DNA of 64,000 bases from an uncultured Planctomycetia bacterium (lineage in GTDB: Bacteria; Omnitrophota; Gorgyraeia; 1-14-0-20-64-10), in contig CAYJQV010000004.1 in the NCBI GenBank assembly GCA_964372395.1, positions 2,984 through 66,983 of the forward strand, read 5' to 3'. Under the pieces are notes generated by a model that saw nothing but the letters and a program-made list of their open reading frames with translations, was not told the origin of the DNA and ran no database searches. Below, piece by piece: positions 2,261 to 38,943 of this stretch (its first letter is position 1; every line of letters begins with the position of its first letter). The translations under genes and the position numbers were made by a program.

Positions 2261-2873
2261 ACGCCTCGCAGCCGATCGGACAGTCGCCGCGTACCGGCTG
2301 CAGGCCCGCCGGGCGATCGCCAGCTGGAGCCGGGGCCGGCGGGTCCCTGCCTTCCTGAAGCAGTTTGTATCGAACCTTCCCTCCGGAGCGCGGGTTCTCG
2401 ACTACGGCTGCGGGATCGGGCGCGAGATCCGCTGGATGCAGCGGGGAGGACTGCGCGTGGAGGGGGTGGACGCGACGCTGGAATTCGTGCGGGAGGCCCG
2501 CCGCCGGTGTCCGGGGGTTCCGATCCGGCACGCTCGATTTGAGAGCGTCCCGCTGGAACCGGGCGCGTACGACGGGATCTGGTGCAACGCAGCCCTCACG
2601 CATGTTCCTCCCGAAGAGCTCAGGCGCCAGCTCGCCAAACTGCACCAGGCGCTGCAGCCCGGCGGCGTCCTGGGGCTCACCCTCGCCTGGGGCAGGCGGA
2701 AGGGGTTCACGGAGCGCGATTGGATCCCGGGCAGGTACGTGGCCGGTTATGGTCGCCGTGAAGCCGCCCTGTTCCTGCGGGGGTGGCAGCTTCTGTCGCT
2801 GAAGGTGGTCTCGCGGGACGGCCGGAAGGGACGCTGGATCCAGATTCTGGCTCGTCCGGATTTGATACACTAG
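2253..2873 (+). CDS. class I SAM-dependent methyltransferase
   Basis: VLDYGCGIGRE glycine-rich SAM motif. 8-nt overlap with arfB. Confidence 0.7.
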   Translation: MNERLAADRTVAAYRLQARRAIASWSRGRRVPAFLKQFVSNLPSGARVLDYGCGIGREIRWMQRGGLRVEGVDATLEFVREARRRCPGVPIRHARFESVPLEPGAYDGIWCNAALTHVPPEELRRQLAKLHQALQPGGVLGLTLAWGRRKGFTERDWIPGRYVAGYGRREAALFLRGWQLLSLKVVSRDGRKGRWIQILARPDLIH

Positions 2874-2887
2874 AAGGGAGCCCTCTC

Positions 2888-4819: not shown

Positions 4820-5952
4820 AGCGGACTGTCATCATCGGTGGCGGTATCTCCGGGCTGGCGCTGGCACACCGGCTCGCCGAGCTCAGCCGCGGGGCCGCTC
4901 ATCCGGTTACCCTGCTTGAAGCCAGCCCCCGGTTCGGCGGTCTCATCGAAACGCGCCGGCAGGATGGCTTTCTGCTGGAGGGGGGGCCGGATGGGTTTCT
5001 GGCAGAGAAGCCGGGGGCAGCCGAGCTGTGCCAACGGCTTGGGATCGCGGGAGAGCTGGTTCAGACCCGGGCCGATTTTCGTCGGCTGTACGTCCTGCAG
5101 CGGGGGAGTCTCGTCGAGTTCGAACGATGTGAGGAGGAGCTGCGCCAGCAGCTCGCCCGCCGCTTCTACGGGATGGAGGCGGGGAATCCCCGATACGGCC
5201 AGTTCGTGAGCCTTCGGGATGGGCTGGGCAGGCTGGTGGAGCGATTGCTTGAACAGATGCAGGAGGTCCGATTGCTTCCCAACACCCCGGCCTGCGGGCT
5301 GGAACGAACGGCTGCGGGCTGGAAGATCCATCTTCCGGGCGCAGAAACCCTTGAGGCCGAAGCGCTTTGCCTGGCGCTGCCGGCCCCTCAGGCGGCGGGG
5401 CTCACGAGGTCCTTCGCTCCGCAGATCGCCGATCTGCTGGAAGAGATCCGTTACATGCCGGTGGCCACCGTGAATCTGGGTTTCCGGAAAGAGGATCTGC
5501 CCGCGCTGCCCAGGGGATTCGGCTATGTGGTCCCGGCGGATGCCGTCGAGACGGTGCTGGGCTGCACATTCTCCGACTTCAAATTCCCGGGGCGCGCCCC
5601 CGAAGGGGGAGCCCTTCTTCGGATCTTTGCAGGGGGATCGGTCCGGCCTGAGGCGGTGACGCAGCCGGATGGAACGCTGGTGGAAGGGATCCGGTCGGAG
5701 CTCAGGCGGCACCTGGGGCTCCTCGCCAGACCGCGGCTGGTCTGGATCCGCCGATATCCCAACGCCGTGCCGGAGCATGCCCCAGGAAACTCGGGGGGCG
5801 TGGAAGCCCTGGAGAAAGAAACCGAACGCTGGCCCGGCCTTTACCTGACCGGCTGCCGGGGCGTGGGCCTCCCTGACCGCATCCGCCAGGCGGTGCTCAC
5901 CGCGGAACAGATCTCCGACTGGGCTGCCCATCCCCAGGCGCACTCAAAGTAG
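4816..5952 (+). CDS. hemY: protoporphyrinogen/coproporphyrinogen III oxidase (HemY/CgoX family, FAD-dependent)
   Basis: TTG start overlapping the hemDE stop. N-terminal VIIGGGISGLALAHRL FAD-binding fold. Position between hemE and hemH. Confidence 0.8.
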   Translation: MKRTVIIGGGISGLALAHRLAELSRGAAHPVTLLEASPRFGGLIETRRQDGFLLEGGPDGFLAEKPGAAELCQRLGIAGELVQTRADFRRLYVLQRGSLVEFERCEEELRQQLARRFYGMEAGNPRYGQFVSLRDGLGRLVERLLEQMQEVRLLPNTPACGLERTAAGWKIHLPGAETLEAEALCLALPAPQAAGLTRSFAPQIADLLEEIRYMPVATVNLGFRKEDLPALPRGFGYVVPADAVETVLGCTFSDFKFPGRAPEGGALLRIFAGGSVRPEAVTQPDGTLVEGIRSELRRHLGLLARPRLVWIRRYPNAVPEHAPGNSGGVEALEKETERWPGLYLTGCRGVGLPDRIRQAVLTAEQISDWAAHPQAHSK

Positions 5953-9517: not shown

Positions 9518-10557
9518 CCCGCAGGCCCTACACCACGGGCTACGCCCAGGTGGACCGGAGGATCGCGGAGCTTCTGGAATCCTTCGGCGACGGTTTCGAC
9601 CGGGAGCTGCTGGCGGAGATGGTCACCTCCATCTACCGCTTCGGGCGGGACGGGGCCTCGACGATCGATCTGAAGATCGTCAACAGCGCGGTGAAGGAGC
9701 TGCGCTACGCCTTCAAGGTGTTCCAGCCCTATCGCCGTATCCGCAAGGTCGCGATCTTCGGGTCGGCCCGCACGCCGCGCGGGGATCCCTCTTACGAGAT
9801 GGCCAGGGAGTTCGGCCGGATCATGGCCCGGTCGAGGTGGATGGTGATCACCGGTGCGGCCAGCGGCATCATGAAGGCCGGCCACGAGGGGGCGGGTCGG
9901 GAGGCCAGCTTCGGCCTCAACATCCGGCTTCCCTTCGAGCAGGAGGCGAACCCCGTCATCGCCCGTGACAGGAAGCTGGTGAGCTGCAAGTACTTCTTCA
10001 CCCGGAAGCTGCTCTTCATCAAGGAGTCGGACGCTACGGTCCTCTTCCCCGGGGGGTTCGGGACGCTGGACGAGGGCTTCGAATGCCTGACCCTCGTCCA
10101 GACGGGCAAAAGCGTGCCGCGCCCCATCGTCTTCGTGGATTATCCGGACGGGCGCTTCTGGGGGCCCCTCCTGAAGTTCTTCGACGACGTCTGTCGCGAG
10201 GAGAAGATCTCCTCCAGCGACCGGTCGCTCTACACGGTGGCCCGTTCGGCGAGAGAGGCCGCCGCCCAGGTCAAGGGATTCTACCGGGTGTATCACTCCA
10301 TGCGGTACGTGGGGGAGGAGACGGTCTTCCGCCTCCAGAAGCCAATGCCGGATCGGGTGGTGCGGGATCTCTCCAGGCAGTTTGGGGACATCCTGATCTC
10401 CGGCAGGATCCGGCAGGGGGAGGCCCTTTCCGAAGAGGAGGAGAGCCAGCGGGACGAGCCGGAGCTGCAGAAGCTGCCGCGTCTCATCTTCCGTTTCAAC
10501 CGCAGGGACTACGGCCGCCTGGTGGAGCTCATCCACCGCATCAACGCCGGCGGCTGA
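9511..10557 (+). CDS. LOG-family (TIGR00730) nucleotide 5'-monophosphate nucleosidase, PpnN-like with N- and C-terminal extensions
   Basis: PGGFGTLDE and ...AIFGSAR... LOG motifs. 348 aa. Confidence 0.75.
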   Translation: MVARRPYTTGYAQVDRRIAELLESFGDGFDRELLAEMVTSIYRFGRDGASTIDLKIVNSAVKELRYAFKVFQPYRRIRKVAIFGSARTPRGDPSYEMAREFGRIMARSRWMVITGAASGIMKAGHEGAGREASFGLNIRLPFEQEANPVIARDRKLVSCKYFFTRKLLFIKESDATVLFPGGFGTLDEGFECLTLVQTGKSVPRPIVFVDYPDGRFWGPLLKFFDDVCREEKISSSDRSLYTVARSAREAAAQVKGFYRVYHSMRYVGEETVFRLQKPMPDRVVRDLSRQFGDILISGRIRQGEALSEEEESQRDEPELQKLPRLIFRFNRRDYGRLVELIHRINAGG

Positions 10558-10592
10558 GCCGGCCCCTCCGCCAGCCCCGATCCGGAGCCCCC

Positions 10593-10621
10593 TTGCCCAA
10601 CATGTCAATATGTAGTAAAAT
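10593..10621 (+). promoter_or_regulatory. sigma70-like promoter (TTGCCC-N17-TAAAAT) for the XRE regulator
   Basis: AT-rich island in a GC-rich context. Correct 17-nt spacing. The predicted TSS lies 1-3 nt upstream of ATG 10631, which would make the mRNA leaderless. Confidence 0.45.
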
Positions 10622-10630
10622 TGCTACTGA

Positions 10631-11128
10631 ATGCCATACCTGCCGTTTGCCCGATCAGTGGCGCTGTGGAGGATCGAGCGGGGGCTCAGCCAGGAGGAGC
10701 TCGCCCGGCGGGCGGGGATCCCCCGGCCGAACCTTTCGGCCATCGAACGGGGCAAACGGGACGTCACCCTGGCGACGCTGAGGGCGCTTGCGGGGGCGCT
10801 GCGTGTCCGGCCCGGGGTTCTGGCGGACTGTATCCCCCCGAGGGCGGATGAGGGGAAGGCGCCTCTCTCCCGGGAGGAGATGGAGCGTGTGGCGGACAGG
10901 GTGGTTTGGGGCGGATCGGCGCGAAGCCGGAGGGAGCGGGCGCTCGTGGATGCGCTGAGGAGCCTGGTCCGGCACCGGTTGACCCCGATTCAGAGAGGCG
11001 GCGGGGATCCCCGCAGAGGGTACCGGTCTGCAGCCAGGGCCTGGTTGTGGCTGAGGTCCACTTATCCCCCGGAGGCGGTGAAGGGTCTCCTTCAGCGGAT
11101 CACGGATCGGGAGGCGCGGGCAGCATGA
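10631..11128 (+). CDS. XRE-family helix-turn-helix transcriptional regulator with C-terminal extension
   Basis: LSQEELARRAGIPRPNLSAIERGKRDVTLATLRALAGAL is an HTH_XRE domain. Confidence 0.8.
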   Translation: MPYLPFARSVALWRIERGLSQEELARRAGIPRPNLSAIERGKRDVTLATLRALAGALRVRPGVLADCIPPRADEGKAPLSREEMERVADRVVWGGSARSRRERALVDALRSLVRHRLTPIQRGGGDPRRGYRSAARAWLWLRSTYPPEAVKGLLQRITDREARAA

Positions 11129-11730
11129 GGAAGCAGATCCATGAGTTCTTCGAGGTTCTTGCACGGGAGCTGGACCGGCCCGCGCGGGTCATCCTGATCG
11201 GAGCGGCCGCCGGCGCGCTGTGGGGCTCGGTGCGGCCGAGCCAGGATGTGGACTTCGAGATCCGGGTGGCTGGCTCCGGTCCTGCCGGCGAGCGGGATAT
11301 CCAGACGGCGATTCAGCGGGCCGTGGAGGCGACCGGGGTTCAGGCGAACTACGCCGAGGAGATCGGTCGCTGGGGCATGATCTCTCTTGCGGACTACCGC
11401 AGGCATACGGCCCTCTACCGCCGATTTGGAAAGCTGGAGCTTCGCCTGCTCGATCCTGCCTACTGGGCGATCGGGAAGCTGGACCGCTACGTGCAATCGG
11501 ATGCGCAGGATCTGCTCTTCGTCCTCAGGAAGCGGAGGCCCTCCCTGAGACACGCGACCCGGGTGTGGGGACGGGCACTGCGCCAGAGCCCCCTCTCGGA
11601 GACAAAGCTGCTCTTCCGCAGGCACGTCGGGCATTTCCTGCGCACTCACGGGCGGGAGATTTGGGGGGAGCGGTTTGACCCGGCTGAGGCGGTCCGGGCG
11701 TTCCACCGCCACGCCGGCGTCTCGGTTTGA
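11124..11730 (+). CDS. minimal nucleotidyltransferase (MNT/AbiEii-like fold) protein
   Basis: ATGA overlap with the XRE gene. The ...GAAAGALWGSVRPSQDVDFEI... motif matches the GS-x(n)-DxD nucleotidyltransferase signature. Confidence 0.55.
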
Positions 11731-15515: not shown

Positions 15516-15905
15516 TTACAGAGAACCGGTCAGAGGAACCCGGGGTGCACGGCGGCGCTCTTCGGGGATGCCGGGAGGAGAGATGAGCTGGCGGACGAGG
15601 GTTCGGTCCGATTCCTCCATTCGCGTGAAGGAGATCCCCAGGCGGAACCGTCCGGCGTAGGGCAGGCAGTGAACCACGCGGCCGGTGATCTGCATGAGCC
15701 CCGGCGGGTGAGCGGGGAGGGGCAAGGCAGTGCGTGAGAATTCAAGCCGAACCAGCAGGCCCCACGGGAGAGAAACGTTGCTCAGGAGGCCGAGCCCATA
15801 CTCGCTGATGTCGTAGAGGAAGGCCTCGATCGGCCCGTCCGGCTTGTACACCGTCTGCGACCGCTCCGGATCTTCATGGACCTCCACGTTTACAGGGATC
15901 GGCAT
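15516..15905 (-). CDS. PilZ domain protein (c-di-GMP receptor-like)
   Basis: ~130 aa with PilZ-like motifs. Confidence 0.5.
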   Translation of the reverse strand: MPIPVNVEVHEDPERSQTVYKPDGPIEAFLYDISEYGLGLLSNVSLPWGLLVRLEFSRTALPLPAHPPGLMQITGRVVHCLPYAGRFRLGISFTRMEESDRTLVRQLISPPGIPEERRRAPRVPLTGSL

Positions 15906-15951
15906 TGCTAGCAACTATTCTATCACCCACCGCCCAGAGGAGGCCGGTATA

Positions 15952-18900
15952 ATGGAGAGGGTTAAGGTCGCCATGCCGAACAAGACGCTGGAGGTTTTGC
16001 TCAAGGAGGGAAGGGCCTTCCCGCCGCCGGAAGCTTTTGCCCGCCGCGCGAACGTCCGGGATCCCGGCGTGTACGAACAGGCCGCCAGGGACCCATTGGC
16101 ATTCTGGGAATCGTTCGCCGGGGAGCTGCACTGGTTCAGCCGGTGGGGCAAGGTGCTGGAGTGGGAGCTGCCGGACGCCCGCTGGTTTGTCGGCGGCAAG
16201 ACCAACCTCTCCTATAACTGCCTGGACCGCCACCTGTCCGGCGCGCGCAGGGACAAGCCGGCGATCCTGTGGGAGGGAGAGCCCGGGGAGGAGCGGCGCC
16301 TCACCTACGCCCAGCTGCACCGGGAGGTCTGCCGGTTCGCGCACGCGCTCGAGCGGCTCGGGGTGAAGCGGGGTGATCGTGTGACGATCTACATGCCGAT
16401 GGTGCCGGAGCTGGCGATCGCCATGCTCGCCTGCGCGCGGATCGGGGCCCCGCACAGCGTGGTCTTCGGCGGGTTCAGCGCCGAGGCGCTGGGGGACCGG
16501 CTCCGTGATTCGCAGTCCAGGGTGCTGGTGACCGCCGATGGGGGCTGGAGGCGGGGCTCTGTGGTGCCGCTCAAGAGGAGCGCCGACGAGGCGCTGGAGG
16601 CGGCCCCCTCCGTGGAGAAGGTGGTCGTCTTCCGGCGGTTGAAGGAATCGGGCTGTCCGATGAAGCCGGGCCGGGATCTCTGGTGGGAGGAGCTCGTGGC
16701 CGGGCAGCCGGACCAGCACGAGGCGGCTCGGCTCGATTCGGAGCAGATGCTGTACCTCCTGTACACGAGCGGGACCACCGGCAAGCCCAAGGGGATCGTC
16801 CACACCACCGGCGGCTACATGGTCGGCTGCTACGCGACCACGAGGTGGATCTTCGACCTGAAGGAGGAGGACACCTTCTGGTGCGTTCCCCCAGGAACCA
16901 AAGTGATCGCGAACCCAGAGCCCAAATCCATTGAGCAGATTAAGGTCGGAGATCGAGTTCTAGCACACGACGGGAGGTACTCTGAAGTCCGTCGACTTTA
17001 CAGGCGGCACTACGAAGGCGACCTCGTAAGGATCCAGACTCTGTATTGCGGCGAACCGTTCCTGCTGACCCCCAACCACTCTGTGCTCTGCGGACGAAAG
17101 GGGAGAACAGGGATTCTCTGGAAACCGGCAGGTGAACTGACGGAAAAGGATTTCGTCTTGCTTCCGAAACTCCGAGAAAACCAAGACCGGGAATTCATAA
17201 AGATATCCGCCGTCGTCAGGGGATGTGTGGTCGTCGGCGAGAGAGTCCGGCGCCCGAAGATCCGCTTTTCCCTGCCTGAGAAAATACCCCTTGATCCTCG
17301 TTTTATGCGTTTAGCAGGCTACTATCTTGCAGGGGGAAGCGTGGCGTCCAAAGGCCGCGCACTGCAGTTCTCCTTTAATCGGCGCGAGGAGCCTTATGCC
17401 GATGACGTCCTATCTCTTTTGGAGGAAATCTTCGGAATCAGCGGAAAGAAGGCATGGATCAATAACCTCTGCGAGATCCGGGTGGGCTCTGTACTGCTCG
17501 CCGAGTTCATGCCTGCCCTCTTTGGAAGCAAAGCCCCTAACAAGCGAATTCCGGACGAGTGGCTCTGTTTTCCCGATGGAAAGCTGGCCGAGCTGCTGAA
17601 GGGTCTTTGGCGGGGAGATGGCAGTGCGGATCGGGACTCGTTCAGGTTCCACACCACATCCGAAGTTCTCGCCCACCAGGTCAGGATGATTCTAACCAAG
17701 ATGGGCTTGCTGAGCTCGATCGGTTGTCGCAAGAGGGAGCGCATTGGGCCCAGCCGGATCGGCGGCAGAAGCATCATCGCCCGGCACGATTGCTATTGCA
17801 TAAAAGTGGGCGGAAGGGCGCTCCAAAAGCTCTCTGAAATCCTCGGGGTGCGCCATCCTTTTATCGGGAAGCGCATCTCGGTTCGGCGACGCGGCATGCG
17901 CTCGAAAAATTACCTGTGGTTGCCCATCCGGTCCGTCAAGCGGGAGTATTACGAGGGCGAAGTCTACAACATAGAGACCGACAAGCATTCCTATGTCCTG
18001 AGTAACATGGCGGTCCATAACTGCACGGCTGACATCGGTTGGGTGACAGGCCATTCGTACGTGGTTTACGGACCTCTGCTCAACGGGGCGACCACCCTCA
18101 TGTACGAGGGGGCGCCGGATCATCCGGGCAAGGACCGCTTCTGGCAGATCGTGGAGAAGTACCGGGTCAGCGTCTTCTACACCGCCCCCACGGCGATCCG
18201 GGCCTTCATCAAATGGGGAGAGGAGCTGCCCGGCGGTCATGACCTCACGAGCCTGCGGCTGCTCGGCTCGGTGGGGGAGCCGATCAACCCCGAGGCCTGG
18301 ATCTGGTACCACCGGGTGGTGGGCCACGGCCGCTGTCCCGTGGTGGATACCTGGTGGCAGACCGAGACCGGACAGATCCTGATCTCGCCCCTTCCCGGGC
18401 TGACGAAGCTCAAGCCCGGCTCGGCGACCCTTCCGTTCCCGGGGATCGAGGCGGACGTGGTGGACGACAAGGGGAATCGCTCCGATTCCGGCTACCTGGT
18501 GATCCGATCCCCCTGGCCCGGGATGCTGCGGGGAATCTACGGGGATCCGGAGCGCTACCGGGCCCAGTACTGGAGCCGGTTCCCCGGCCTTTACTTCACC
18601 GGCGATGGGGCGAAGCGGGATCCGGACGGCTGCTTCTGGCTGCTCGGCCGGGTGGACGACGTCCTGAAGGTGAGCGGCCACCGGCTTTCCACCATGGAGA
18701 TCGAGTCGGCGCTGGTGGACCATCCCTCGGTCGCCGAGGCGGCGGTGGTGGCCAAGCCGCATGAGATCAAGGAGAACGCCGTGGTCGCCTTCGTGACGCT
18801 CAAGTCCAGCGTCCGGCCCGCCGATGGTTTGACGGAGGAGCTCAAGGCGCACGTGGTGCGGAAGATCGGTGCCATCGCGCGGCCGGATGAGGTGATCCTG

Positions 18901-19050
18901 ACGGCCGAGCTGCCGAAGACCCGATCTGGCAAGATCATGCGGCGCCTGCTGCGCGACATCGCGGAGGGGAAGGCTCTTGGAGACACCACCACGCTGGCGG
19001 ACGCGGGCGTCGTGCAGGCGCTGAAGGAGAAGTATGGCGAGTCTGAGTGA
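15952..19050 (+). CDS. acs: acetyl-CoA synthetase (AMP-forming), interrupted by an in-frame intein (extein 1: 15952-16881; extein 2: 18022-19050)
   Basis: AGGAGG RBS with ATG at 15952. YTSGTTGKPKG P-loop. The conserved FW|CTADIGWVTGHSY motif is split by a 380-aa insert. The C-terminus is typical Acs (...KTRSGKIMRRLLR...). Confidence 0.9.
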   Translation: MERVKVAMPNKTLEVLLKEGRAFPPPEAFARRANVRDPGVYEQAARDPLAFWESFAGELHWFSRWGKVLEWELPDARWFVGGKTNLSYNCLDRHLSGARRDKPAILWEGEPGEERRLTYAQLHREVCRFAHALERLGVKRGDRVTIYMPMVPELAIAMLACARIGAPHSVVFGGFSAEALGDRLRDSQSRVLVTADGGWRRGSVVPLKRSADEALEAAPSVEKVVVFRRLKESGCPMKPGRDLWWEELVAGQPDQHEAARLDSEQMLYLLYTSGTTGKPKGIVHTTGGYMVGCYATTRWIFDLKEEDTFWCVPPGTKVIANPEPKSIEQIKVGDRVLAHDGRYSEVRRLYRRHYEGDLVRIQTLYCGEPFLLTPNHSVLCGRKGRTGILWKPAGELTEKDFVLLPKLRENQDREFIKISAVVRGCVVVGERVRRPKIRFSLPEKIPLDPRFMRLAGYYLAGGSVASKGRALQFSFNRREEPYADDVLSLLEEIFGISGKKAWINNLCEIRVGSVLLAEFMPALFGSKAPNKRIPDEWLCFPDGKLAELLKGLWRGDGSADRDSFRFHTTSEVLAHQVRMILTKMGLLSSIGCRKRERIGPSRIGGRSIIARHDCYCIKVGGRALQKLSEILGVRHPFIGKRISVRRRGMRSKNYLWLPIRSVKREYYEGEVYNIETDKHSYVLSNMAVHNCTADIGWVTGHSYVVYGPLLNGATTLMYEGAPDHPGKDRFWQIVEKYRVSVFYTAPTAIRAFIKWGEELPGGHDLTSLRLLGSVGEPINPEAWIWYHRVVGHGRCPVVDTWWQTETGQILISPLPGLTKLKPGSATLPFPGIEADVVDDKGNRSDSGYLVIRSPWPGMLRGIYGDPERYRAQYWSRFPGLYFTGDGAKRDPDGCFWLLGRVDDVLKVSGHRLSTMEIESALVDHPSVAEAAVVAKPHEIKENAVVAFVTLKSSVRPADGLTEELKAHVVRKIGAIARPDEVILTAELPKTRSGKIMRRLLRDIAEGKALGDTTTLADAGVVQALKEKYGESE
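16882..18021 (+). mobile_element. full-size intein with LAGLIDADG homing-endonuclease domain inside acs
   Basis: Starts with Cys (CVPPGTKVIANPEP...). Block B TPNH. LAGLIDADG-like motifs LAGYYLAGGSV and LLKGLWRGDGS. Ends ...MAVHN followed by the +1 Cys of the extein. Confidence 0.85.
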
Positions 19051-20445: not shown

Positions 20446-20769
20446 TCAGCCGGGACCCTCCCTCTCAGGCAGCAGGGTCACCTCCAGGGATGTCGTTTGC
20501 CACCAGATCCAACGGCCGAATGGGCCCGCCCAGGCGACCCAGGCGAACGGCAGGATGCTGGTGGCACGATAGCGGGTATTGCACGACACGCAGTAACAGG
20601 TGAGCCCCATCCGCTGGAGCGGGCCGCGGAGGAAGGTTCGCCGGACCGGCACGGCAGTGGCAAGCCGCCCGCGGCAGGAGGGGCAGAAGCGAGGGGCGGG
20701 GTAGAACTGATAGGCGGGCAGGGGTGCGGTGGGAGGCGCGGGTGGGGGCGGAGACGGGGGCAGCGCCAC
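20446..20769 (-). CDS. small Pro-rich zinc-ribbon membrane protein (DUF983-like), hypothetical
   Basis: GTG start overlapping the stop of the upstream FAD oxidase. CPSC...CVSC zinc ribbon followed by a hydrophobic helix. Strong GC3 coding bias. Lies between two same-strand genes. Confidence 0.4.
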   Translation of the reverse strand: MALPPSPPPPAPPTAPLPAYQFYPAPRFCPSCRGRLATAVPVRRTFLRGPLQRMGLTCYCVSCNTRYRATSILPFAWVAWAGPFGRWIWWQTTSLEVTLLPEREGPG

Positions 20770-22289
20770 TACAGCTCCTGGAGTAGCTCGATGGGAAAGA
20801 TGTTCCCTGGGCTGAGGATCCCCCGGGGATCGAGCCCCTTCTTCACACGCGCCATCTCCTTCAGCCCCTCGCGTCCTACCATCATCTCCAGGTAGGGGAC
20901 GCGCAGCTTTCCGATCCCATGCTCGGCGGAGATCGTACCGCCCAGCTGAATTGCCTTGCGGGCGATCCGCTCGTAGAAGGCAAGGGCACGCTTGAACTCC
21001 TCCTGGGTCGCGGGAAGGAAGTTGGCGTGCAGATGGTTGTCCCCGAGGTGTCCCCAGAGGGTGGCAGCCATCTGCGACTTCGGCAGCTCCTCCAGAGTGA
21101 AGCGGAACATCTCCTCCGCTCCGGGGTCCGGGACCGCGCAGTCGGTCCCGACCTTCCGGAAACCGTTCCGGGCCACCTTCTCGTTGACGAGCACCGGCAG
21201 GTCGTACCGGAATTTCCGGAACTCGCGGTGGTCCTCCGGCCGATGGGAGAACCAGCAGTCGGATGCACTGGCCCCCGCCGACTCGGAGGCCCCCGTCCAT
21301 TCCTGGAGGAGCGCCTCCTGCTCCGATTTGCTGCACTCCTGCTCGAAGAGCAGGGCCGCCCCCGCGTGCTCCGGCGTGTCCGGATGCTTCTCTGAAAGGA
21401 GCCGCAGGGAACAGGAGTCGAAGAACTCCAGGGCACGGGGGGAAAGCCCCATTCCCTGCACCCGTGGGGTCAGACCCTCTGGGGTCTGACCCCAGAGGGT
21501 CTGACCCCATTCTGCCTGGCCCTTGGCCTTGGCTGCGAAGCGGAAACAGTCCAGCTCCGTATTGAAGAAGAGGATCCCGCTGAAGACCGACTCGGGCCTC
21601 GGCAGGACTTTCAGCTCGATCCGGGTCACCACCCCCAGCGTTCCCTCGGATCCCACAAAGAGATCCACAAGATCCATTCCATCCTCGGCGAAATAGCCGG
21701 CCGCGTTCTTGGGGCAGCGGGACCGGTAGGTGGGCACCGGCAGGTCCGCGGAGGCGCCAGCCGGGAAGGGAATCCGGAGGATTCCCTGGCGGGCGGTAAT
21801 CTCTCCGCGCCGGATCTCCAGAACCTCCCCGCTGGCCAGCACGACGCGCAGGGCTTGCACGTACGCGCGGGTCGGGCCGTACTTGAACGACCGTGAACCG
21901 GAGGCGTTGGTGGCCACGTTCCCCCCGAGCGAGGCCTTCCTCTCTCCGGGGTCCGGCGGATAGAAGAGCCCTCGCGGCTCCAGTGCGGCGTCCAGCTCGG
22001 AGAGGGTAACGCCCGGCTCAACGATGGCGATCCCTGCGGGAGAGGTCCTGTCCCACCGGACCTCCAGGATCCGGTTCATCTTCTCCGTGCAGAGGACCAC
22101 GCCCCCTTGAGGGACCCTCGCCCCGGTCAAGCCGGTTCCCGCGCCGGAGATCGTCACGGAAATTCCCTGCTTCTGGAAGGTGCCGAGGAGGGAGGCCACC
22201 TCACCTTCGGAGGTCGGCAGGAAGATCCGGTCCGCCTTCCCGCGAAAATGGGAGGCGTCCCGCAGATGGTCGTCCGCCGCCTGGTTCAC
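20769..22289 (-). CDS. FAD-linked oxidase (GlcD / D-lactate dehydrogenase family) carrying an in-frame repeat-derived insertion
   Basis: FAD-binding PCMH domain (...TISGAGTGLTGARVP...) and a C-terminal FAD-oxidase domain. A 15-aa WGQTLWGQTPEGLTP insert is encoded by the palindromic repeat at 21466-21508. Confidence 0.8.
   Translation of the reverse strand: MNQAADDHLRDASHFRGKADRIFLPTSEGEVASLLGTFQKQGISVTISGAGTGLTGARVPQGGVVLCTEKMNRILEVRWDRTSPAGIAIVEPGVTLSELDAALEPRGLFYPPDPGERKASLGGNVATNASGSRSFKYGPTRAYVQALRVVLASGEVLEIRRGEITARQGILRIPFPAGASADLPVPTYRSRCPKNAAGYFAEDGMDLVDLFVGSEGTLGVVTRIELKVLPRPESVFSGILFFNTELDCFRFAAKAKGQAEWGQTLWGQTPEGLTPRVQGMGLSPRALEFFDSCSLRLLSEKHPDTPEHAGAALLFEQECSKSEQEALLQEWTGASESAGASASDCWFSHRPEDHREFRKFRYDLPVLVNEKVARNGFRKVGTDCAVPDPGAEEMFRFTLEELPKSQMAATLWGHLGDNHLHANFLPATQEEFKRALAFYERIARKAIQLGGTISAEHGIGKLRVPYLEMMVGREGLKEMARVKKGLDPRGILSPGNIFPIELLQEL
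21466..21508. repeat. palindromic repeat element copy A (GGGGTCAGACCC-tct-GGGGTCTGACCCC-agag-GGTCTGACCCC)
   Basis: Perfect 12-bp inverted repeat plus a third arm. Lies inside a CDS and is in frame. Confidence 0.8.
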
Positions 22290-26425: not shown

Positions 26426-27013
26426 CTAGATGAGATACAGCAGTGGAAAGAGAAAGATCCAGACCAGATCCACGAAATGCCAGTACAGCCCGGAGATCTC
26501 GACGATGTGGCTGCGCGCCCTGAAGAAATCACTCCGGAAGGTCGACGCCAGGACCCAGAGATTGGCGATCACCCCGCCGAGCACATGAAGCCCATGGAAG
26601 CCGGTCAGGGTGAAGTAACAGTCCCAGAAGAGGCCTGTTCCGGGCAGATGGCCGTGGGCAAACTTCACCGAGTACTCGTACGCCTTGACCCCGAGGAAAG
26701 CGGCCCCCAGCAGGATCGTCAAGGCGAGGAAGAGCCGCAGCCGGGCCGCGTCCTGCTGATGAACCGCGGCGACACCCAGCGCCATCGTCATCGAGCTCGA
26801 GAGAAGGATGAAGGTGTTGAGGGCCGCCAGCGGGATCTGGAGCTCCTCGCCCGGCTGCGGCCAGTGGGGCAGCCCCGCGCGCAGCACGATGGAGGCCCCG
26901 ATGAGGCCGGTGAAGAACATGACCTCCGAGGCCAGGAAGAGCCACATCCCCAGCTTGGGCGAGGGGATCCCGGTGGAGGTCGCCTCCAATGCATGTGCCG
27001 CTGGCTGCGTCAT
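26426..27013 (-). CDS. ctaE: cytochrome c oxidase subunit III
   Basis: ...GMWLFLASEVMFF...HGLHVLGGV... His-rich TM helices. ATGA overlap with the upstream gene. Confidence 0.85.
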   Translation of the reverse strand: MTQPAAHALEATSTGIPSPKLGMWLFLASEVMFFTGLIGASIVLRAGLPHWPQPGEELQIPLAALNTFILLSSSMTMALGVAAVHQQDAARLRLFLALTILLGAAFLGVKAYEYSVKFAHGHLPGTGLFWDCYFTLTGFHGLHVLGGVIANLWVLASTFRSDFFRARSHIVEISGLYWHFVDLVWIFLFPLLYLI

Positions 27014-28792
27014 GAGATCACCCGATCCAGCGTCAGCGTGGTCAAAAGAACCGGCAGGTACACGACCGAGGCCAGGAAGAGCCGATGGGCGGTCTGTCCT
27101 GAGCGGGCCCGTGCCGTGGCAAGCCCCAGCCCCAGGAAGATGACCCCACCCGCCAGTGCCACCGAAAAGTAGAGCCATCCGGCGAAGCCCAGACCCACCG
27201 GGAGAAGACTGACCGGCAGAAGCGCGGCCAGGTACAGAACCACCTGCCGGAAGGTGAGGCCCCCTTCCGGATCGAGAACCGGCAGCATCCGGAAGCCGGC
27301 CTGCCGGTAGTCGGACCGGAACTGCCAGGCGAGCGCCAGGAAATGAGGGAGCTGCCAGAGGAAGAGGATGGAGAAGAGCCACCAGGCCGGCAGGCCCAGC
27401 ATCCCCCGCGCCGCTGCCCAGCCGATCATGGGTGGCAGGGCGCCCGGCACCGCCCCCAGCAGAGTGCAGAGCGCCGAGCGGCTCTTGAGCGGCGTGTAGA
27501 TGAAGAGGTAGGTGACCAGGGTCAGGGCAGCCAGCGCCGCGGCCAGCAAGTGAACCCCGAAGCTGAGCGTGGCCAGGCCGGCGATCGATAGGGTGACCCC
27601 CACAGCCAACCCTGCTTCCGGTGACACCCTGCCGGAGGGGATGGGGCGCGTGCGGGTGCGAGACATCCGGGAATCGGCCTGCCACTCCATCGCCTGATTG
27701 AGCGCGGCCGCTGCTGCGCCCACCAGCGTGGTTCCGATGAGTGTTGCGATGAACCGCCCCCAGGGGAACGGGCCCACTTGGCCCATGAGGAATCCGAGCA
27801 GAACCGTGAGGACCGACAGGATCGTCAACCGCGGCTTGGTGAGCTCCAGGAGGTCGGCAAGGCGCGCGCCACCGGACTGGCGGCGCGAGAGAGGCGCAGA
27901 GCCGGGCAGGGGGGCGAGAGCCGCGCGCAGGGAGTGGGTGGTGAGAACCGCTGAGGTGGCCAGGAGGAGAGCTCCCACGGCGACATGACCCGTGGCGGTG
28001 AACGGATTCGAGCCCTGGAGGAAGGTCAGGAGACCCAGGAGGATTTGCAGCGGAACGAGCAGAAGGAGAATCCGCGCCGGCCCGACGTATTCGGGCCGGT
28101 CGGAGTAGTCCCTGAGACAGACGAAGGCGGCGCGCAGGAGAACCGCCCCGGCCAGGATCGCTCCGGTTCCGTGCGCCGCCAAGAGCGGGGCGCTCCATCC
28201 GAGATGCCGCAGGGCCGCACCTAGCAGGAGCTGAAGGTAAACCAGCGCGGTCATCGAGAGGAACAACCCCCAAGGCACGCGTCGAGGGGTCAGACCCTCT
28301 GGGGTCAGACCCTGGAGGGTCTGACCCCAGAGGGTGTTCCAGCCGGGGCCGAGCACTGTGGCGAGGACTGCCAACAGCGCAAAGAAGGTCTGTCCCAGCG
28401 TTGCATGGGCGATGGAGATTGGCGCCGGCAGGAGGAGCAGCACCGTCAATCCCCCCAGGATCCCCTGCAGGACCACGGCGGCGAATGCCGCCAGCGCCAG
28501 CCGGCGAACCCAGCGGCGCTTCTCAGCGGCCAGGATGGCGAGGGTGAGCAGCAAGGTCAACAGCCCCACACCCGCGGCAACCAGGCGGTGGGTGTGCTCG
28601 TAACGGATGCCGCCCACCATCGGGGGGAACAGGGAGCCGTACGAAAGGGGCCAGTCCGGGACGGCGAGCCCGGAGCCGGTGGAGGTGACCAGCCCGCCTG
28701 CGATGATCAGAAGAAAGCCAGCCGCCGCGGTGAACCAGGCGAAAACCTGAAGGGGTCTGACCCCAAGAGGCTTTTCGGGGTCAGACCCCATG
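27010..28792 (-). CDS. fused haem A synthase (CtaA/COX15, N-terminal) / protohaem IX farnesyltransferase (CtaB/COX10, C-terminal); carries one internal and one N-terminal palindromic-repeat insertion
   Basis: N-terminus ...GGLVTSTGSGLAVPDWPLSYG... is CtaA. The C-terminal half has the UbiA-family motif NQAMEWQADSRMSRTRTRP, which is CtaB. The start is placed at the ATG inside the repeat (28790-28792), and the true start is uncertain. An in-frame LWGQTLQGLTPEGLTP insert is present. Confidence 0.75.
28286..28328. repeat. palindromic repeat element copy B (GGGGTCAGACCC x2 direct, then GGGTCTGACCCC)
   Basis: Inside the ctaA-ctaB CDS, in frame. Confidence 0.8.
28752..28789. repeat. palindromic repeat element copy C (GGGGTCTGACCCC-N12-GGGGTCAGACCCC) at the ctaD/ctaA junction
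   Basis: Contains the ctaD stop codon (TGA inside GGGGTCTGA on the minus strand) and a candidate ctaA start ATG. Confidence 0.75.
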
Positions 28793-30526
28793 GGGTTTCT
28801 CCGTCTGCAGCTGCCAGTCCCGTCTTGCCCCTGGCACGGAGTACTCGTATGGCCCGCAGTGGACGGTGGGTGTGGTGGCGAAGTTCCCGTGGGGCGGAGG
28901 AGAAGGGACGGTCCACTCCAGTGTCGTCGCCTCCCAGGGATTCTCATTCACCCTCTTGCCGCGGAAGAGAGATGAGAAGAAGTTATAGACGAAGAGAAGC
29001 TGCGACGCGAACAGGCAGAAGGCGGCCACACTCATCATCCGGTTCAACCCCACCAGATTCGCCAGGGCCGGATACTGCGTGTAGTCGTAGATCCGCCGCG
29101 GCATGCCGCCCAGGCCCAGGATGAACATCGGGAACATGACCGCATTGAAGAGCAGGAAGGAGAGCCAGAAATGGATCTTCCCCAGCCGCTCGTTCATTGC
29201 GCGGCCGAACATCTTGGGGAACCAGTAGATGATGCCGGCGAAGGCGCCGAAGAGGGAGCCGCCGAAGAGGACGTAGTGGATGTGCCCGACGACGAAGTAG
29301 GTGTCGTGCAGGTACATGTCCACCGGGGTGGAGCCGAGGAAGATGCCGGTGAGGCCCCCGATGATGAACATCGAGATGAAGCCCAGCGCGTGGAGCATCG
29401 GCGTGGTCAGCCGGATGGATCCGCGCCAGAGGGTGCCCAGCCAGCTGAACACCTTGACGCCGGTGGGGACCGCCACCGCCATGGTGGAGATCATGAAGGT
29501 GGTTCCCAGGACCGGATTCATCCCGGCGTGGAACATGTGGTGCGCCCAGACGAGGAAACCGACCGCCCCGATCCCCACGGAGGCGTAGGCGATCGCCCTG
29601 TAGCCGAAGAGCGGCTTCCGGGAGAAGTTGGGCAGGATGTCGGAGATAAAGCCCATCGCCGGCAGGATCATGATATAGACCGCCGGGTGGGAGTAGAACC
29701 AGAAGAGGTGCTGCCAGAGGACCGCCTGCCCGCCGGCGTAGGGAAGGGGATTGCCGTCAACGATCATCCCGGCCGGCAGGAAGAAGCTGGTCCCCAGCGT
29801 CCGATCCAGGAGCAGCAGGATGAGGGCTGAGGCGAGGACCGGCGTCGCCAGCAGGGTGAGCACCGCCGTCGTGAAGAGGGCCCAGATGGAGATCGGCAGA
29901 CGATGGAAGCTCATCCCCGGGGCGCGGTGATTGACGATGGTGGCGATGTAGTTCACCGACCCGAGGATGTTGGAGAACCCCAGCAGGATGAGCCCCGCCG
30001 TCCAGAAGGTCTGGCCCGCCCCCATCGTCTCCTTCGCCCCGGACAGCGGCGGGTAGGCGGTCCAGCCGGCGGCGGCGGCCCCCCCCTCCGCCCAGAACCC
30101 GAGCATGACGGTGATCGCCGCAGGCGGGAAGAGCCAGTAGGAGAGCATGTTGAGCCGCGGGAACGCCATGTCGGGCGCGCCCACTTTAAGCGGGATGAGG
30201 TAATTGCCGAAGGCGCCCGCCAGGAGCGGGATGATCCCGAAGAAGATCATCGCCGAGCCGTGCATGGTGAAGAGGACGTTGTAATACTCCGGCACCATGT
30301 AGCCGCCCGGCATCCCCTCCGGGGCGAACTTCTCCATGAAGGGCAGCGGTGTCCCCGGCCAGCCGAGCTGCCAGCGCATCAGCATGGCCAGCACGCCGCC
30401 GAAGAGCATGAAGAGCAGCGAGCTGAAGAGGAACTGGATGCCGATGATCTTATGGTCGGTCGAGAAGATGTACCTCCTCAGAAAGGGGACTGTCCCCCCC
30501 CGCCCCGGATGCGCTGCTTCACTCAT
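28781..30526 (-). CDS. ctaD: cytochrome c oxidase subunit I
   Basis: 581 aa with haem-copper oxidase His ligands throughout. The C-terminal ...KPHGV and the stop are encoded by the palindromic repeat. Confidence 0.9.
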   Translation of the reverse strand: MSEAAHPGRGGTVPFLRRYIFSTDHKIIGIQFLFSSLLFMLFGGVLAMLMRWQLGWPGTPLPFMEKFAPEGMPGGYMVPEYYNVLFTMHGSAMIFFGIIPLLAGAFGNYLIPLKVGAPDMAFPRLNMLSYWLFPPAAITVMLGFWAEGGAAAAGWTAYPPLSGAKETMGAGQTFWTAGLILLGFSNILGSVNYIATIVNHRAPGMSFHRLPISIWALFTTAVLTLLATPVLASALILLLLDRTLGTSFFLPAGMIVDGNPLPYAGGQAVLWQHLFWFYSHPAVYIMILPAMGFISDILPNFSRKPLFGYRAIAYASVGIGAVGFLVWAHHMFHAGMNPVLGTTFMISTMAVAVPTGVKVFSWLGTLWRGSIRLTTPMLHALGFISMFIIGGLTGIFLGSTPVDMYLHDTYFVVGHIHYVLFGGSLFGAFAGIIYWFPKMFGRAMNERLGKIHFWLSFLLFNAVMFPMFILGLGGMPRRIYDYTQYPALANLVGLNRMMSVAAFCLFASQLLFVYNFFSSLFRGKRVNENPWEATTLEWTVPSPPPHGNFATTPTVHCGPYEYSVPGARRDWQLQTEKPHGV

Positions 30527-36586: not shown

Positions 36587-37384
36587 ATGCGCCGGATTTC
36601 CGTCCTCGCGATCTCAGCCCTTCTTTATTCTTCCCTTTTCCCGCGCCCGGTTTTCCCCCTGAACCTGGATCGTCTGGACGCCGAGGAGCTCCGCTTGAGG
36701 GAATCGATCATGAGGCGGCTCGTTCCGCTCGCCGACCGGCGCAGGCAAGAGGGAACCGCACCCCTCATCACCTTCGAGGAGCTGTACGCGGGCCTGAGCC
36801 AGCGGGAGATCGAGTTCCTCGAGCAGTTCCGCCGGGTGGACCCGGCGGAGGTGGGCGGCTCCAGCCGGCGGCTTCCGCCGCCAGCGGCCGACAGCGAATT
36901 CGTCCGGCTGGACCGGCAGGTGGTCCTGCGCGAGGGCAAGCCGATCCGGCTCGATGCACAGTATCTGCCGCGGACAGCGCACGAGGCGTACCGCCGGATG
37001 ATGGCGGCCATGGAGGAGGATCTCGGCAAGCGGCTGCTGGTCGAGTCCGGATACCGCTCCCCGGCCTATCAGCTCTACCTCTTCCTCTACTACATGCCAA
37101 AGCACGGCCACTCCGTCCGGGAGACCAACCGCCACGTCGCCCTGCCCGGGTGCAGCGAGCATGGGAGCCCCGATTTTCAGGCGATCGACTTCATCACCCC
37201 GGAGGGGGTGAACGGCGAGGATCGGCCGGAGGAGTTCGAGGAGCTGCAGGAGTACGGCTGGCTGCGGGCTCGCGCGCGGGAGTTCGGCTTTCGCCTGTCG
37301 TACCCTCGCGGCGGTCCCTCCGCATTCGAGCCATGGCACTGGCATTGGGAGAAAGGGAACTTTTCGGAAAGGGACTTTCCATGA
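36587..37384 (+). CDS. peptidase M15 family (VanY-like D-Ala-D-Ala / L,D-carboxypeptidase), secreted
   Basis: Signal peptide MRRISVLAISALLYSSLF. ...SGYRSPAYQ... and ...HGSPDFQAIDF... are Zn-ligand motifs. Confidence 0.7.
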   Translation: MRRISVLAISALLYSSLFPRPVFPLNLDRLDAEELRLRESIMRRLVPLADRRRQEGTAPLITFEELYAGLSQREIEFLEQFRRVDPAEVGGSSRRLPPPAADSEFVRLDRQVVLREGKPIRLDAQYLPRTAHEAYRRMMAAMEEDLGKRLLVESGYRSPAYQLYLFLYYMPKHGHSVRETNRHVALPGCSEHGSPDFQAIDFITPEGVNGEDRPEEFEELQEYGWLRARAREFGFRLSYPRGGPSAFEPWHWHWEKGNFSERDFP

Positions 37385-38943
37385 AGCCGGTGTCTCCCAA
37401 GGCGGAGCGCCCCAGCCTTTCCTGGAAGGGGCTGTACAAGGAGGCGGCGCTCTACCAAGCGGCGCTGAAGCTTTACACCAAGGCCCTCTTCCAGTGGAGG
37501 AAAGCCCTCTCCACCTCCTCCGATGGGAAGACGCTCTACGATTTTGCCCGGACGGGTCTGGAGCGCTTGGATTCGGTTCATGGAAGGCTCGAGTCTGCCA
37601 CGTTCCACTTCCGCGCGGGGACCGCCCGCACCCACAACTTCAACGGAAAGATCCGAACGCTGTACATCTATCCATGGGAGGAAAAGGTGGTGGATCTGCT
37701 GCTCTACCGGCTGATGAATGCGAAATTCCACGCCCTTTTTTCACCCTGCTCTTACGCCTACCGGTGGCGCGGGTACGGCGTAGACCTCTGCCAGAGGCGC
37801 CTCGCGTCCCAGATCGGACGGAAGGGCAAGCCCCTCTATCTCTTCAAGCGGGACATTGCCAGGTTCTTCGATTCCATCGACCATTCGATTTTGCTGGAGC
37901 GGCTCTCCGAATACGTCCCGCAGGAGGATTACCTCTGGCAGCTTCTCCGGCAGCGGGTGGAGTTTCCCTATGAAGCAGGCGGGCGGATCGTACGGGCGGC
38001 GCAGGGGGTTCCTTTCGGGACCCCGGTGGCCTGTTTCTTTGCGAACCTGTATCTGACGTGGCTGGACCGCCAGCTGGACCAGCGAAAGGGCCTGGCGTAC
38101 TTCCGCTATGCAGATGACCTGATCGGGATCGGATCCGATCCCGATGTGGTGCTGGCTGCGGCCGACTGCTGCGACCGGATGCTGGAGGAGCTGAAACTCT
38201 CCGTCAAGCCGAGCCAGTTTCTGCAGGGAGTTGTCTGCGCCACCCCGACGGAGCGCCCGCCCTTTGCCTGGATCACAAGGTTCAGGCACCTGGGACTGGA
38301 ATTTCGGTGCGATGGCCGCACAGGCCTTTCGAGGGACAAGAGGCGGAAGATCTGCAACCTTTTCCAGTATGCCTTCCGCCGCAAGGCAGGGCGGTTTCGC
38401 AAGATTTCCTCTCCGCAAAAGCGGGCCGAGCTGGCGGTGGAGATCGCCCGAAGGGTTCTGGACCAGCAGCTCCGGCACGTCAGCATCATCGACTACTACC
38501 TCAGGCACGTCCGGGATGAAGAGCAACTGCGGCAGATCGACCGGTGGCTGGCGGAGGAGGTTCTCTCCATCTCTCTGGGCGGGCACCGAAGGGGACATTT
38601 TCGTCGGATCTCCTTCCGGCGGTTGCGCGAGATGGGCCTGCCCTGCCTACGGCACCGCAGCCGCCTGATCCGCCACGGCCAGATCAAAACCTCCTTCTTC
38701 CGTTGGAAGGAGTATCAGCAACAGAAGGCAAAGCGAGGGGGATGGCGCCAGGCTGGAGGTCGGAAAAACCCCAGCCTTTTCCCCGTGCCTGGAAGCATCC
38801 GCCGCGAGCACCCCGTGGGAGAGGGAGGCGGACTGTCGACAGGCGGTATTGAAGACAGATTCGCTGAAGCGAATCTGTCGTTGTCCTGCCATCCCCCTTC
38901 GCTTCCATCCAAGAGAGAGGAGCCGACCGATGGGGCTTCTTGA
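37381..38943 (+). CDS. reverse transcriptase (RNA-directed DNA polymerase), retron / group-II-intron-like lineage, free-standing
   Basis: ATGA overlap with the M15 stop. RT motifs 1/2 (RTLYIYPWEEKVVDLLLYRLMN; SYAYRWRGYG), motif A (LFKRDIARFFDSIDHSILL), motif B (QGVPFGTPVACFFANLYL), motif C FRYADDLIGIG (YADD at 38107-38118), motifs 6/7 (LKLSVKPSQF...FRHLGLEF). No En/HNH or maturase-intron context. The C-terminal ~100 aa is low-complexity and may be non-coding. Confidence 0.85.
   Translation: MKPVSPKAERPSLSWKGLYKEAALYQAALKLYTKALFQWRKALSTSSDGKTLYDFARTGLERLDSVHGRLESATFHFRAGTARTHNFNGKIRTLYIYPWEEKVVDLLLYRLMNAKFHALFSPCSYAYRWRGYGVDLCQRRLASQIGRKGKPLYLFKRDIARFFDSIDHSILLERLSEYVPQEDYLWQLLRQRVEFPYEAGGRIVRAAQGVPFGTPVACFFANLYLTWLDRQLDQRKGLAYFRYADDLIGIGSDPDVVLAAADCCDRMLEELKLSVKPSQFLQGVVCATPTERPPFAWITRFRHLGLEFRCDGRTGLSRDKRRKICNLFQYAFRRKAGRFRKISSPQKRAELAVEIARRVLDQQLRHVSIIDYYLRHVRDEEQLRQIDRWLAEEVLSISLGGHRRGHFRRISFRRLREMGLPCLRHRSRLIRHGQIKTSFFRWKEYQQQKAKRGGWRQAGGRKNPSLFPVPGSIRREHPVGEGGGLSTGGIEDRFAEANLSLSCHPPSLPSKREEPTDGAS
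38854..38879 (+). ncRNA. perfect 11-bp stem / 4-nt loop hairpin (GACAGATTCGC-TGAA-GCGAATCTGTC), candidate structured RNA element at the RT / Zn-ribbon junction
   Basis: Seen directly. The lower-GC, non-coding-looking stretch 38700-38930 surrounds it. Confidence 0.35.

Follow-up and report, generated by a model that had tools for sequence, protein, structure and literature searches.

A palindromic repeat inserted in frame into a flavoenzyme gene of an uncultured Omnitrophota bacterium

We analysed a stretch of 64,000 nucleotides (hereafter the window) from an uncultured bacterium that is filed as Planctomycetia and is placed in the Omnitrophota by the GTDB (assembly GCA_964372395.1, contig CAYJQV010000004.1, positions 2,984 to 66,983; all window coordinates below count from the first letter of this stretch). 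Positions 20769-22289 of the window hold, on the minus strand, a gene for a FAD-linked oxidoreductase of 506 amino acids, which is intact by its Pfam domains, its matches in the PDB and its ratio of nonsynonymous to synonymous substitution rates (dN/dS). Inside this gene lies a short G+C-rich palindromic repeat that keeps the reading frame. Small palindromic repeats are usually treated as extragenic, and Rickettsia provides the main example of such repeats inside protein-coding genes.

The flavoenzyme gene and its insert

In the host protein, Pfam recognizes FAD_binding_4 at residues 20-159 and FAD-oxidase_C at residues 274-497. The closest solved structures by sequence and fold are the lactate dehydrogenase subunit LctD (7qh2_C, TM-score 0.76/0.82), mouse LDHD, which is a D-lactate dehydrogenase, and D-2-hydroxyglutarate dehydrogenase. 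Because its score against the GlcD equivalog model TIGR00387 (NCBIfam) is 246.3 bits, under the cut-off of 567.9, we do not regard the protein as GlcD proper; judged from these matches, it appears to be a GlcD-like D-lactate or D-2-hydroxyacid dehydrogenase with the VAO/PCMH fold. An identical protein sequence is on record in GCA_947085785.1 (contig CAMTXW010000070.1). Clustering at 90% protein identity yielded four members, all with 506 amino acids, and one of them (P0242) is 100% identical to the window protein, the insert included; it comes from a separate NCBI contig of 67,236 nt, possibly assembled from the same reads. The named homologues of the window Cox1 (70-85% identity) were all from metagenome-assembled genomes (MAGs) of Candidatus Omnitrophica, by which the organism is identified as a member of the Omnitrophota.

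The repeat is a perfect palindrome of 45 nt at 21465-21509, in which two arms of 22 nt (21465-21486 and 21488-21509) are 100% complementary around a centre of 1 nt. It is built from three 13-nt units, GGGGTCWGACCCC, which start at 21466, 21481 and 21496 and thus follow a period of 15 bp; the unit itself is a perfect palindrome of odd length. On the minus strand the site reads ...GGCCAGGCAGAA TGGGGTCAGACCCTCTGGGGTCAGACCCCAGAGGGTCTGACCCCA CGGGTGCAGGGAATGGGG..., and the translation of the open reading frame (ORF) across it is ...FAAKAKGQAEWGQTLWGQTPEGLTPRVQGMGLSPRALEFFD..., so that FAAKAKGQAE is followed by WGQTLWGQTPEGLTP and then by RVQGMGLSPRALEFFD. The predicted RNA fold of the palindrome has an energy of -51.7 kcal/mol, compared to an average of -26.7 for shuffled sequences (z = -8.2), and none of the 200 shuffles was as stable; the stability is well past what is expected by chance. 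The unit is also far too frequent in the window, where 11 occurrences with at most one mismatch were counted against 0.36 expected. Two of the three reading frames through the element are open on either strand and the third is closed, as read from the sequence and in agreement with the ORF table. The open frames are TGG-GGT-CAG-ACC, which gives WGQT/GLTP, and GGG-TCA-GAC-CCC, which gives GSDP, and the closed frame is GGG-GTC-TGA. Scans of the window with Rfam at the gathering threshold and with ARAGORN returned no matches, and the hairpins in the window are therefore not a known RNA family. A literature search with the motif strings found just unrelated primers and virus sequences.

Evidence that the segment was inserted came from the homologues of the host protein. 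In an alignment with 21 of them, the closest full-length outgroup (P0002, 486 amino acids, 84% identity) reads ...FAAQAKG-PGTGLSPRALEFFD, and 19 remoter homologues also have no such segment, four of them (P0042, P0056, P0085 and P0091) carrying short native extensions at this place. On L001, the contig of P0002, the genes follow one another as they do in the window (Glyoxalase_4, FAD oxidase, a small ORF, VanZ and IF-2B), which identifies the P0002 gene as the orthologue. DNA alignment with L001 and L002, together with the protein alignment, set the insert that is missing from L001 at 60 nt or 20 codons (21459-21518, minus strand), encoding QAEWGQTLWGQTPEGLTPRV. It consists of the 45-nt palindrome of three units with flanks of 9 and 6 nt, and it is bordered by a direct repeat of 12-14 nt. 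One copy of the direct repeat, CCCCATTCCCTG on the plus strand (21447-21458), corresponds to the ancestral target: downstream of the insert the window has CAGGGAATGGGG where L001 has CCGGGAACGGGT. The other copy, CCCCATTCTGCCTG on the plus strand (21505-21518), lies at the opposite edge of the insert, and once an insertion of 2 nt is allowed for, it agrees with the first at 12 of 12 positions. The insert starts with CAGGCAGAATGGGG, which nearly duplicates the target sequence after it. From its sequence, this arrangement looks like a target-site duplication or a join at a microhomology.

The insert covers residues 258-277, after the FAD_binding_4 region and at the point where the FAD-oxidase_C match begins (residue 274). 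In an AlphaFold2 model built from an alignment of 22 sequences (mean predicted local distance difference test score, pLDDT, of 82.4), residues 259-278 fall below 50 and the blocks of residues 261-280 have values of 35-39; no secondary structure was assigned to residues 257-285, which are flanked by a helix (245-256) and a strand (286-291). The alignment to LctD bypasses the insert, as residues 243-271 of our protein fall between residues 231 and 237 of the LctD chain. The model thus predicts a disordered loop where the FAD-binding and cap domains join. Outside the insert, which was left out of the calculation, dN/dS by the method of Nei and Gojobori was 0.18 between the window and L001 (dS 0.51), 0.21 between the window and L242 (dS 0.117) and 0.17 between the window and L002 (dS 0.162), and ranged from 0.14 to 0.21 across all pairs. 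These low values indicate that the host gene is under purifying selection.

The initial annotation of this site, in which an in-frame repeat insertion tolerated as an extra loop was proposed, is borne out by the empty site in L001 and 19 distant homologues, the near-identical copies found elsewhere, the disordered loop in the model and the dN/dS of 0.18. The alignment of homologues that it had named as a check is the one described above, where the segment was missing from the L001 orthologue and the 19 distant homologues, and its minus-strand repeat sequence and translation agreed exactly with ours. Some of its details have to be revised. The palindrome was correctly recognized but, having been placed at 21466-21508, was drawn one base too short on each side; the insertion, taken as 45 nt and 15 residues, is the gap of 60 nt and 20 codons seen against L001; and its position is the junction between the domains, according to the Pfam limits and the model, instead of the interior of the FAD-linked oxidase C-terminal domain. 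The name "GlcD-like" for the host is acceptable in a loose sense but not if it means GlcD proper.

Copies elsewhere in the window and in other Omnitrophota

Units of GGGGTCWGACCCC occupy five loci in the window, and three of the five overlap coding sequence, two within ORFs and one across a stop and a start codon. The second copy with three units (28286-28328, minus strand) belongs to the CtaA portion of a ctaA-ctaB fusion gene (27010-28791, minus strand), where it is in frame, reads WGQTLQGLTPEGLTP and is identical at 43 of 45 nt to the copy in the GlcD-like gene. It sits in a loop whose sequence varies among relatives and which is 6-7 amino acids longer than in two of them and 4 amino acids shorter than in a third. 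We considered whether the ctaA loop of L246 might be a decayed copy with three units, and rejected this because its DNA has no convincing similarity. The fusion gene combines heme A synthase and heme O synthase (COX15-CtaA and UbiA) and is kept in the cox operons of related Omnitrophota. A protein search with the CtaA part of the window gave a best match of 56% identity and did not return the window's own CtaA-CtaB protein, even though the collection includes further proteins encoded on this contig; the gene caller may have treated the repeat-containing gene differently. The ctaA of the sister strain was likewise not recovered, the best matches in the collection having 56-66% identity and none being a close homologue.

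A copy with two units (28752-28789, minus strand) is located at the junction of cox1 and ctaA. The TGA within the unit is the stop codon of cox1, and ctaA has its ATG (28791-28789) and its first 13 codons inside the repeat or overlapping it. The end of cox1 is ...GAG AAA CCC CAT GGG GTC TGA, and the overlapping ctaA starts with ATG GGG TCT GAC CCC..., which is translated as MGSDPEKPLGVRP. The same cox1 with its repeat-derived end is also recorded on a contig of 67,236 nt. The remaining two loci are intergenic. One is a single unit with 1 mismatch (44849-44861), 12 nt past the stop codon of a methyltransferase gene and upstream of a gene for a DUF255 thioredoxin-domain protein. The other is an inverted pair of units on the plus strand (50140-50168), which forms a hairpin followed by TTTTTT in the manner of a terminator, 24 nt upstream of a glycosyltransferase gene. 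A related palindrome, GGGGACTGTCCCC, occurs once in the cox1 region (30485-30497); it has the motif that served as a control in the viral scans described below.

The same unit was found at unrelated genes of other Omnitrophota, with filled and empty sites. The junction of cox1 and ctaA is free of the repeat in three syntenic loci (L243, L244 and L246); the first two of these have cox1 and ctaA overlapping in ATGCNTAG, with CtaA proteins that begin 12-13 residues later in the alignment. Conversely, L246 has a pair of units at its DUF420/metF junction (11487-11523), where the TGA is the DUF420 stop codon, and neither the window nor L242 or L244 has the repeat at this junction. In L105, a MAG contig, the element at 3569-3598 contains both the end of a gene for a hexapeptide-repeat protein (...KPHGV*, in a unit) and the beginning of the next gene, tgt (MGSDPVGSDP). 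Beyond the core, the junction copies of the window and L105 share the flanking sequences AGAAACCCCAT... and ...TCAGGTTT, one at either side. The Tgt of L105 contains a second, internal pair of units, TGSDPAGSDPK, in a loop 6 residues longer than that of the Zymomonas mobilis TGT. In L108, a pair of units occurs in the C-terminal linker of an FtsA-like ORF, which is truncated by the end of the locus and has weak Pfam matches.

Altogether, nine loci in four genomes carry the repeat: four in frame in genes, three across gene junctions and two in intergenic regions. At the three junctions, which come from three Omnitrophota genomes, the upstream gene (cox1, the hexapeptide-repeat gene or DUF420) has its stop codon in the TGA of a GGGGTCTGACCCC unit, and the next ATG adjoins or overlaps the unit. 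The period of 15 bp recurs in three of the four intragenic copies (GlcD-like, CtaA and Tgt) and in the junction copy of L105; the units are 23 bp apart in the FtsA-like copy of L108 and 25 bp apart at the cox1/ctaA junction of the window. The common flanks support homology of the GGGGTCWGACCCC copies within the Omnitrophota only, as far as sequence comparison can tell.

Outside this phylum the motif is widespread. Genome stretches with pairs of GGGTCWGACCC numbered more than 118 and came from many phyla (Oxalobacteraceae, Gaiellaceae, Lachnospiraceae, Patescibacteria and others; genome contigs L004-L121), including hairpin pairs in AT-rich Patescibacteria and, in Oxalobacteraceae, pairs with the recurring flanks GAAATCT... 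and GTAAACC.... In the viral contigs (L196-L241), however, the target motif was found at 27 loci and the composition-matched control GGGACWGTCCC at 19, while a second control, GGGCTWAGCCC, was found at none. For other phyla, the distribution of unit spacings has its peaks at 14 and 17 bp, and of 155 spacings only 42 are divisible by three. Arrays of three units with the 15-bp period were identified in 74 metagenome contigs, and some fall within real genes, for instance in the linker of a FadB-like protein or in the N-terminal part of a tannase. Direct arrays with this period were noted in contigs from soil and rhizosphere with a G+C content of about 0.7 (L146 and L139 with the FadB-like gene, L158 with the tannase, L129, L134, L147 and L189); one in-frame example, GLGSDPKGSDPRGSDPIS, lies between 3HCDH and ECH domains, and many arrays are positioned just 5' of start codons (ffh, dinB, rlmN). 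A single pan-bacterial family or a conserved binding site is not supported, because the control palindrome is nearly as common and the spacings have no preference for multiples of three. The occurrence across phyla is most readily accounted for by numerous G+C-rich hairpin repeats that are not related to one another.

A second repeat family at the insert site and the origin of the insert

Two proteins of the 90% cluster, P0241 and P0243, and the partial protein P0003 have ...AKGWARAAPRLALAEAPPRAPAQQKTPLSPR... at the insert site. In the sister strain L242 (ENA ERZ926041), the anchors AAGGGY ... CTTTCCCCCC enclose the same length as in the window, so that its insert is also 60 nt but of unrelated sequence, and its fold is no better than that of shuffled sequences (z = -0.36). 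The L242 insert holds one copy of a 42-nt unit (4992-5033), and L002 holds two copies in tandem (357-440). The unit encodes 14 amino acids, approximately QRLxLxxAxPRxxx, and a version of 71% identity occurs twice in tandem and in frame in the metF gene of L242 (1156-1239), where it adds 28 residues (QRLPLSDAAPRPSG x 2); the MetF of the window, otherwise 92% identical to that of L242, is without those 28 residues. Neither family was seen in the other strain: an nhmmer search of the window for the 42-nt family was negative, and there is no GGGGTCWGACCCC unit in the 15.7 kb of L242.

An unrelated segment at the equivalent position in homologues had been named in the initial annotation as a sign that the loop is native. 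Such a segment is, literally, what P0241, P0243 and P0003 contain, yet it is a copy of another repeat family that is also present in metF of the same strain. Since the segment of the sister strain is itself a repeat copy, the site is to be seen as a hotspot for repeat insertion and not as a native loop. On the sequences compared, this loop appears in three states, which are empty (L001), filled with the GGGGTC repeat of three units (window), and filled with the 42-nt family (once in L242, twice in L002).

We suggest, with a probability of about 0.8, that a dispersed G+C-rich palindromic repeat was inserted in frame into the domain linker of this D-lactate-dehydrogenase-like flavoenzyme gene, and that the element is selfish, compatible with coding and filtered by selection. 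A short GGGGTCWGACCCC repeat has entered the linker between the FAD-binding and cap domains, and would have survived there because the insert is divisible into codons, its units repeat every 15 bp (5 codons) and two of its three frames are open. The 20 extra residues form a disordered loop, perhaps a neutral one, and the enzyme is still under purifying selection. The same family is also present in other permissive loops and at gene junctions, where the closed frame supplies the stop codon of the upstream gene. Filled and empty alleles, the dispersed family, the kept frame, the place in the loop and purifying selection are thus observed, and selfish mobility, a mobilising enzyme and neutrality of the loop are inferred. 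In this way the element would behave as selfish DNA that tolerates translation, presumably with the help of a mobilising enzyme. Several observations weigh against this explanation. No transposase (Y1_Tnp/RAYT or DDE) or insertion sequence (IS) was found by Pfam in the approximately 60 ORFs of the window, which are ordinary chromosomal genes, and we therefore infer mobility solely from filled and empty sites. A flanking duplication was sought at the cox1/ctaA junction and none was evident. For the internal ctaA copy, a net insertion cannot be demonstrated, because the loop varies in all relatives, and the surface exposure of the flavoenzyme insert is deduced from low confidence of the model. 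Finally, an unrelated insert of equal length at one site is not predicted by random, independent insertion, and suggests replacement or a targeted process.

This last point leads to a possible, though in our opinion doubtful, alternative in which the loop was filled once, in the ancestor shared by the strains of the window, L242 and L002, and one repeat family later replaced the other at equal length, for example by breakage of the hairpin-forming insert and repair templated by another copy or by a site-specific process. The identical length of 60 nt between the same anchors favours replacement over two independent insertions, though it may be a coincidence. The three strains are close, and L242 and L002 (dS 0.18) are no nearer to each other than to the window (dS 0.12 and 0.16, respectively); the ctaA copy, with its match of 43 of 45 nt, could have acted as a donor. 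However, no boundary sequence is common to the inside of both inserts, no recombinase was identified, and the four lineages are too few to order the events. A broader version of this idea is speculative and, we think, rather unlikely: small translation-compatible repeat families of the Omnitrophota might be exchangeable modules at fixed permissive sites (loops and junctions), and the equal-length swap at a dS of 0.12 might have been targeted, through a site-specific process or the repair of hairpin breaks, rather than produced by random insertion and selection. If true, this would be a previously undescribed mode of coding-sequence remodelling in bacteria.

The repeat might instead have been kept as useful, if its hairpin in the mRNA slows ribosomes or controls mRNA decay or if the loop has a role in the protein. 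The stable hairpin is placed exactly at the domain boundary, the palindrome is perfect and undecayed, and the junction copies give neighbouring genes their stop and start codons. Nevertheless, the site is empty in L001 and all distant homologues, the unrelated sequence in the sister strain has no fold beyond chance, so that no structure is conserved at the site, and no run of U follows the hairpin; a selected function is quite unlikely. A local origin of the palindrome in a native hypervariable loop, through slippage or template switching on sequence that the gene already had, is very improbable. The short native extensions in four homologues and the direct repeat of 12-14 nt at the borders could be expected in this case, but the near-identity to the ctaA copy, the four further loci with the unit within 64 kb, and the units with common flanks at unrelated genes of other Omnitrophota could not, and the dispersed near-identical copies largely refute it. 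The genome is a MAG, and assembly errors can produce perfect palindromes. A chimera made by the metagenome assembler is hardly credible, however, because the reading frame is kept, the unit is found in complete genomes and many independent assemblies, and the insert as well as the repeat-derived end of cox1 recur in the records of 67,236 nt mentioned above, albeit possibly from the same reads.

Known palindromic elements and other features of the window

Among known elements, the insertion of a dispersed repeat described here is closest in behaviour to the Rickettsia palindromic elements (RPE; Ogata et al. 2000), which, in the passages that treat them in PMC10969869 and PMC3184786, are about 100-150 bp long and lie in frame in unrelated genes. 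Both are palindromic, enter unrelated housekeeping genes in frame, add a peptide without destroying the gene and leave filled and empty sites in relatives; in the Omnitrophota, in-frame copies in intact genes were found in the GlcD-like gene, in ctaA, in the tgt of L105 and in the FtsA-like ORF of L108. In contrast to the RPE, which encode a conserved peptide module and are described from Rickettsia, the Omnitrophota element measures 30-60 nt (45-60 nt for the insert), has 13-nt units with a 15-bp period and is G+C-rich, and the sequences are unrelated.

The junction copies resemble the mycobacterial interspersed repetitive units (MIRU; Supply et al. 1997), described in the relevant part of PMC3184786 as elements of 40-100 bp between operon genes whose ends overlap the neighbouring genes. 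Short G+C-rich repeats with overlapping ends occur likewise at the cox1/ctaA junction of the window, between the hexapeptide-protein gene and tgt in L105, and between DUF420 and metF in L246, and the 42-nt family varies in copy number as MIRU do (one in L242, two in L002). This indicates MIRU-like behaviour only. MIRU are set apart in that the description mentions none that forms a perfect palindrome within an enzyme domain, and membership in the mycobacterial sequence family is implausible given the different phylum and unit size.

In form, the element is similar to the repetitive extragenic palindromic sequences (REP) and their paired form, REPIN, which are short, G+C-rich, extragenic by definition and mobilised by RAYT transposases (PMC3116915, PMC3337134). 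The likeness lies in very short, G+C-rich palindromes, here dispersed over five loci of the window, that form hairpins (13-nt units in pairs or triplets, arms of 22 nt), and in inverted pairs that make one long hairpin (28752-28789 and 50140-50168). Unlike REP, however, the element overlaps coding sequence, at three of the five loci in the window and likewise in L105, L108 and L246; no RAYT gene was found in the window, and the unit is a perfect palindrome of odd length. Transposable elements of the miniature inverted-repeat type (MITEs) with in-frame fusions to ORFs, such as ERIC, BOX, Correia and Nezha, have been reviewed (PMC10969869). They too are small, non-autonomous hairpin repeats that are sometimes fused in frame, and the possible target-site duplication is another point in common, but MITEs are usually AT-rich, longer than 100 bp and equipped with terminal inverted repeats derived from an IS. 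Here the whole element is palindromic, no parent IS was found in the window, and a flanking direct repeat was seen at the GlcD-like site only. The element is thus like RPE in behaviour, like MIRU at junctions and like REP/REPIN in form, and it is a member of none of them. The hotspot and the junction copies make the case more than a single tolerated insert, still within known biology.

These results suggest that a free-living, uncultured phylum, the Omnitrophota, has elements which act like RPE but are much smaller. They fill loops and linkers of core enzymes (the flavoenzyme, heme A synthase, Tgt and the FtsA-like protein) and donate stop and start codons at operon junctions. Inserts of this kind lower the apparent sequence identity, as in the "difference" at 92% between strains, which is largely due to the swapped insert; they also create strain-specific markers and flag sites in proteins that tolerate insertion. 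The equal-length swap, if it came from a directed process, would represent a new mechanism of change in coding sequences.

Several other features were noted in the window and the sister strain. In L242, four copies of a periodic repeat of about 78 nt (61-76% identical) occupy 10733-11012 in an ORF (10550-11218) without a Pfam match, which probably reflects a repetitive protein sequence. A reverse transcriptase ORF (RVT_1, 597 amino acids) occupies 37150-38943 of the window (plus strand), flanked by genes for a VanY-like protein and an amino-acid permease, and shows no connection with the repeats. In PADLOC it is matched best by RT_UG26, in the range of 1e-36; it scores far under the cut-off for group II intron maturases, and no intron RNA was found by Rfam. 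The acetyl-CoA synthetase gene (15844-19050, plus strand) is an ORF of 1068 amino acids that includes an intein containing a homing-endonuclease domain of the LAGLIDADG type (Pfam Intein_splicing and LAGLIDADG_3), and the Acs of the sister strain (L242, 8108-10066) has 652 amino acids and no intein. Near the start of the window, HemD and HemE are encoded by one fused gene (HEM4 and URO-D; 2783-4819, plus strand).

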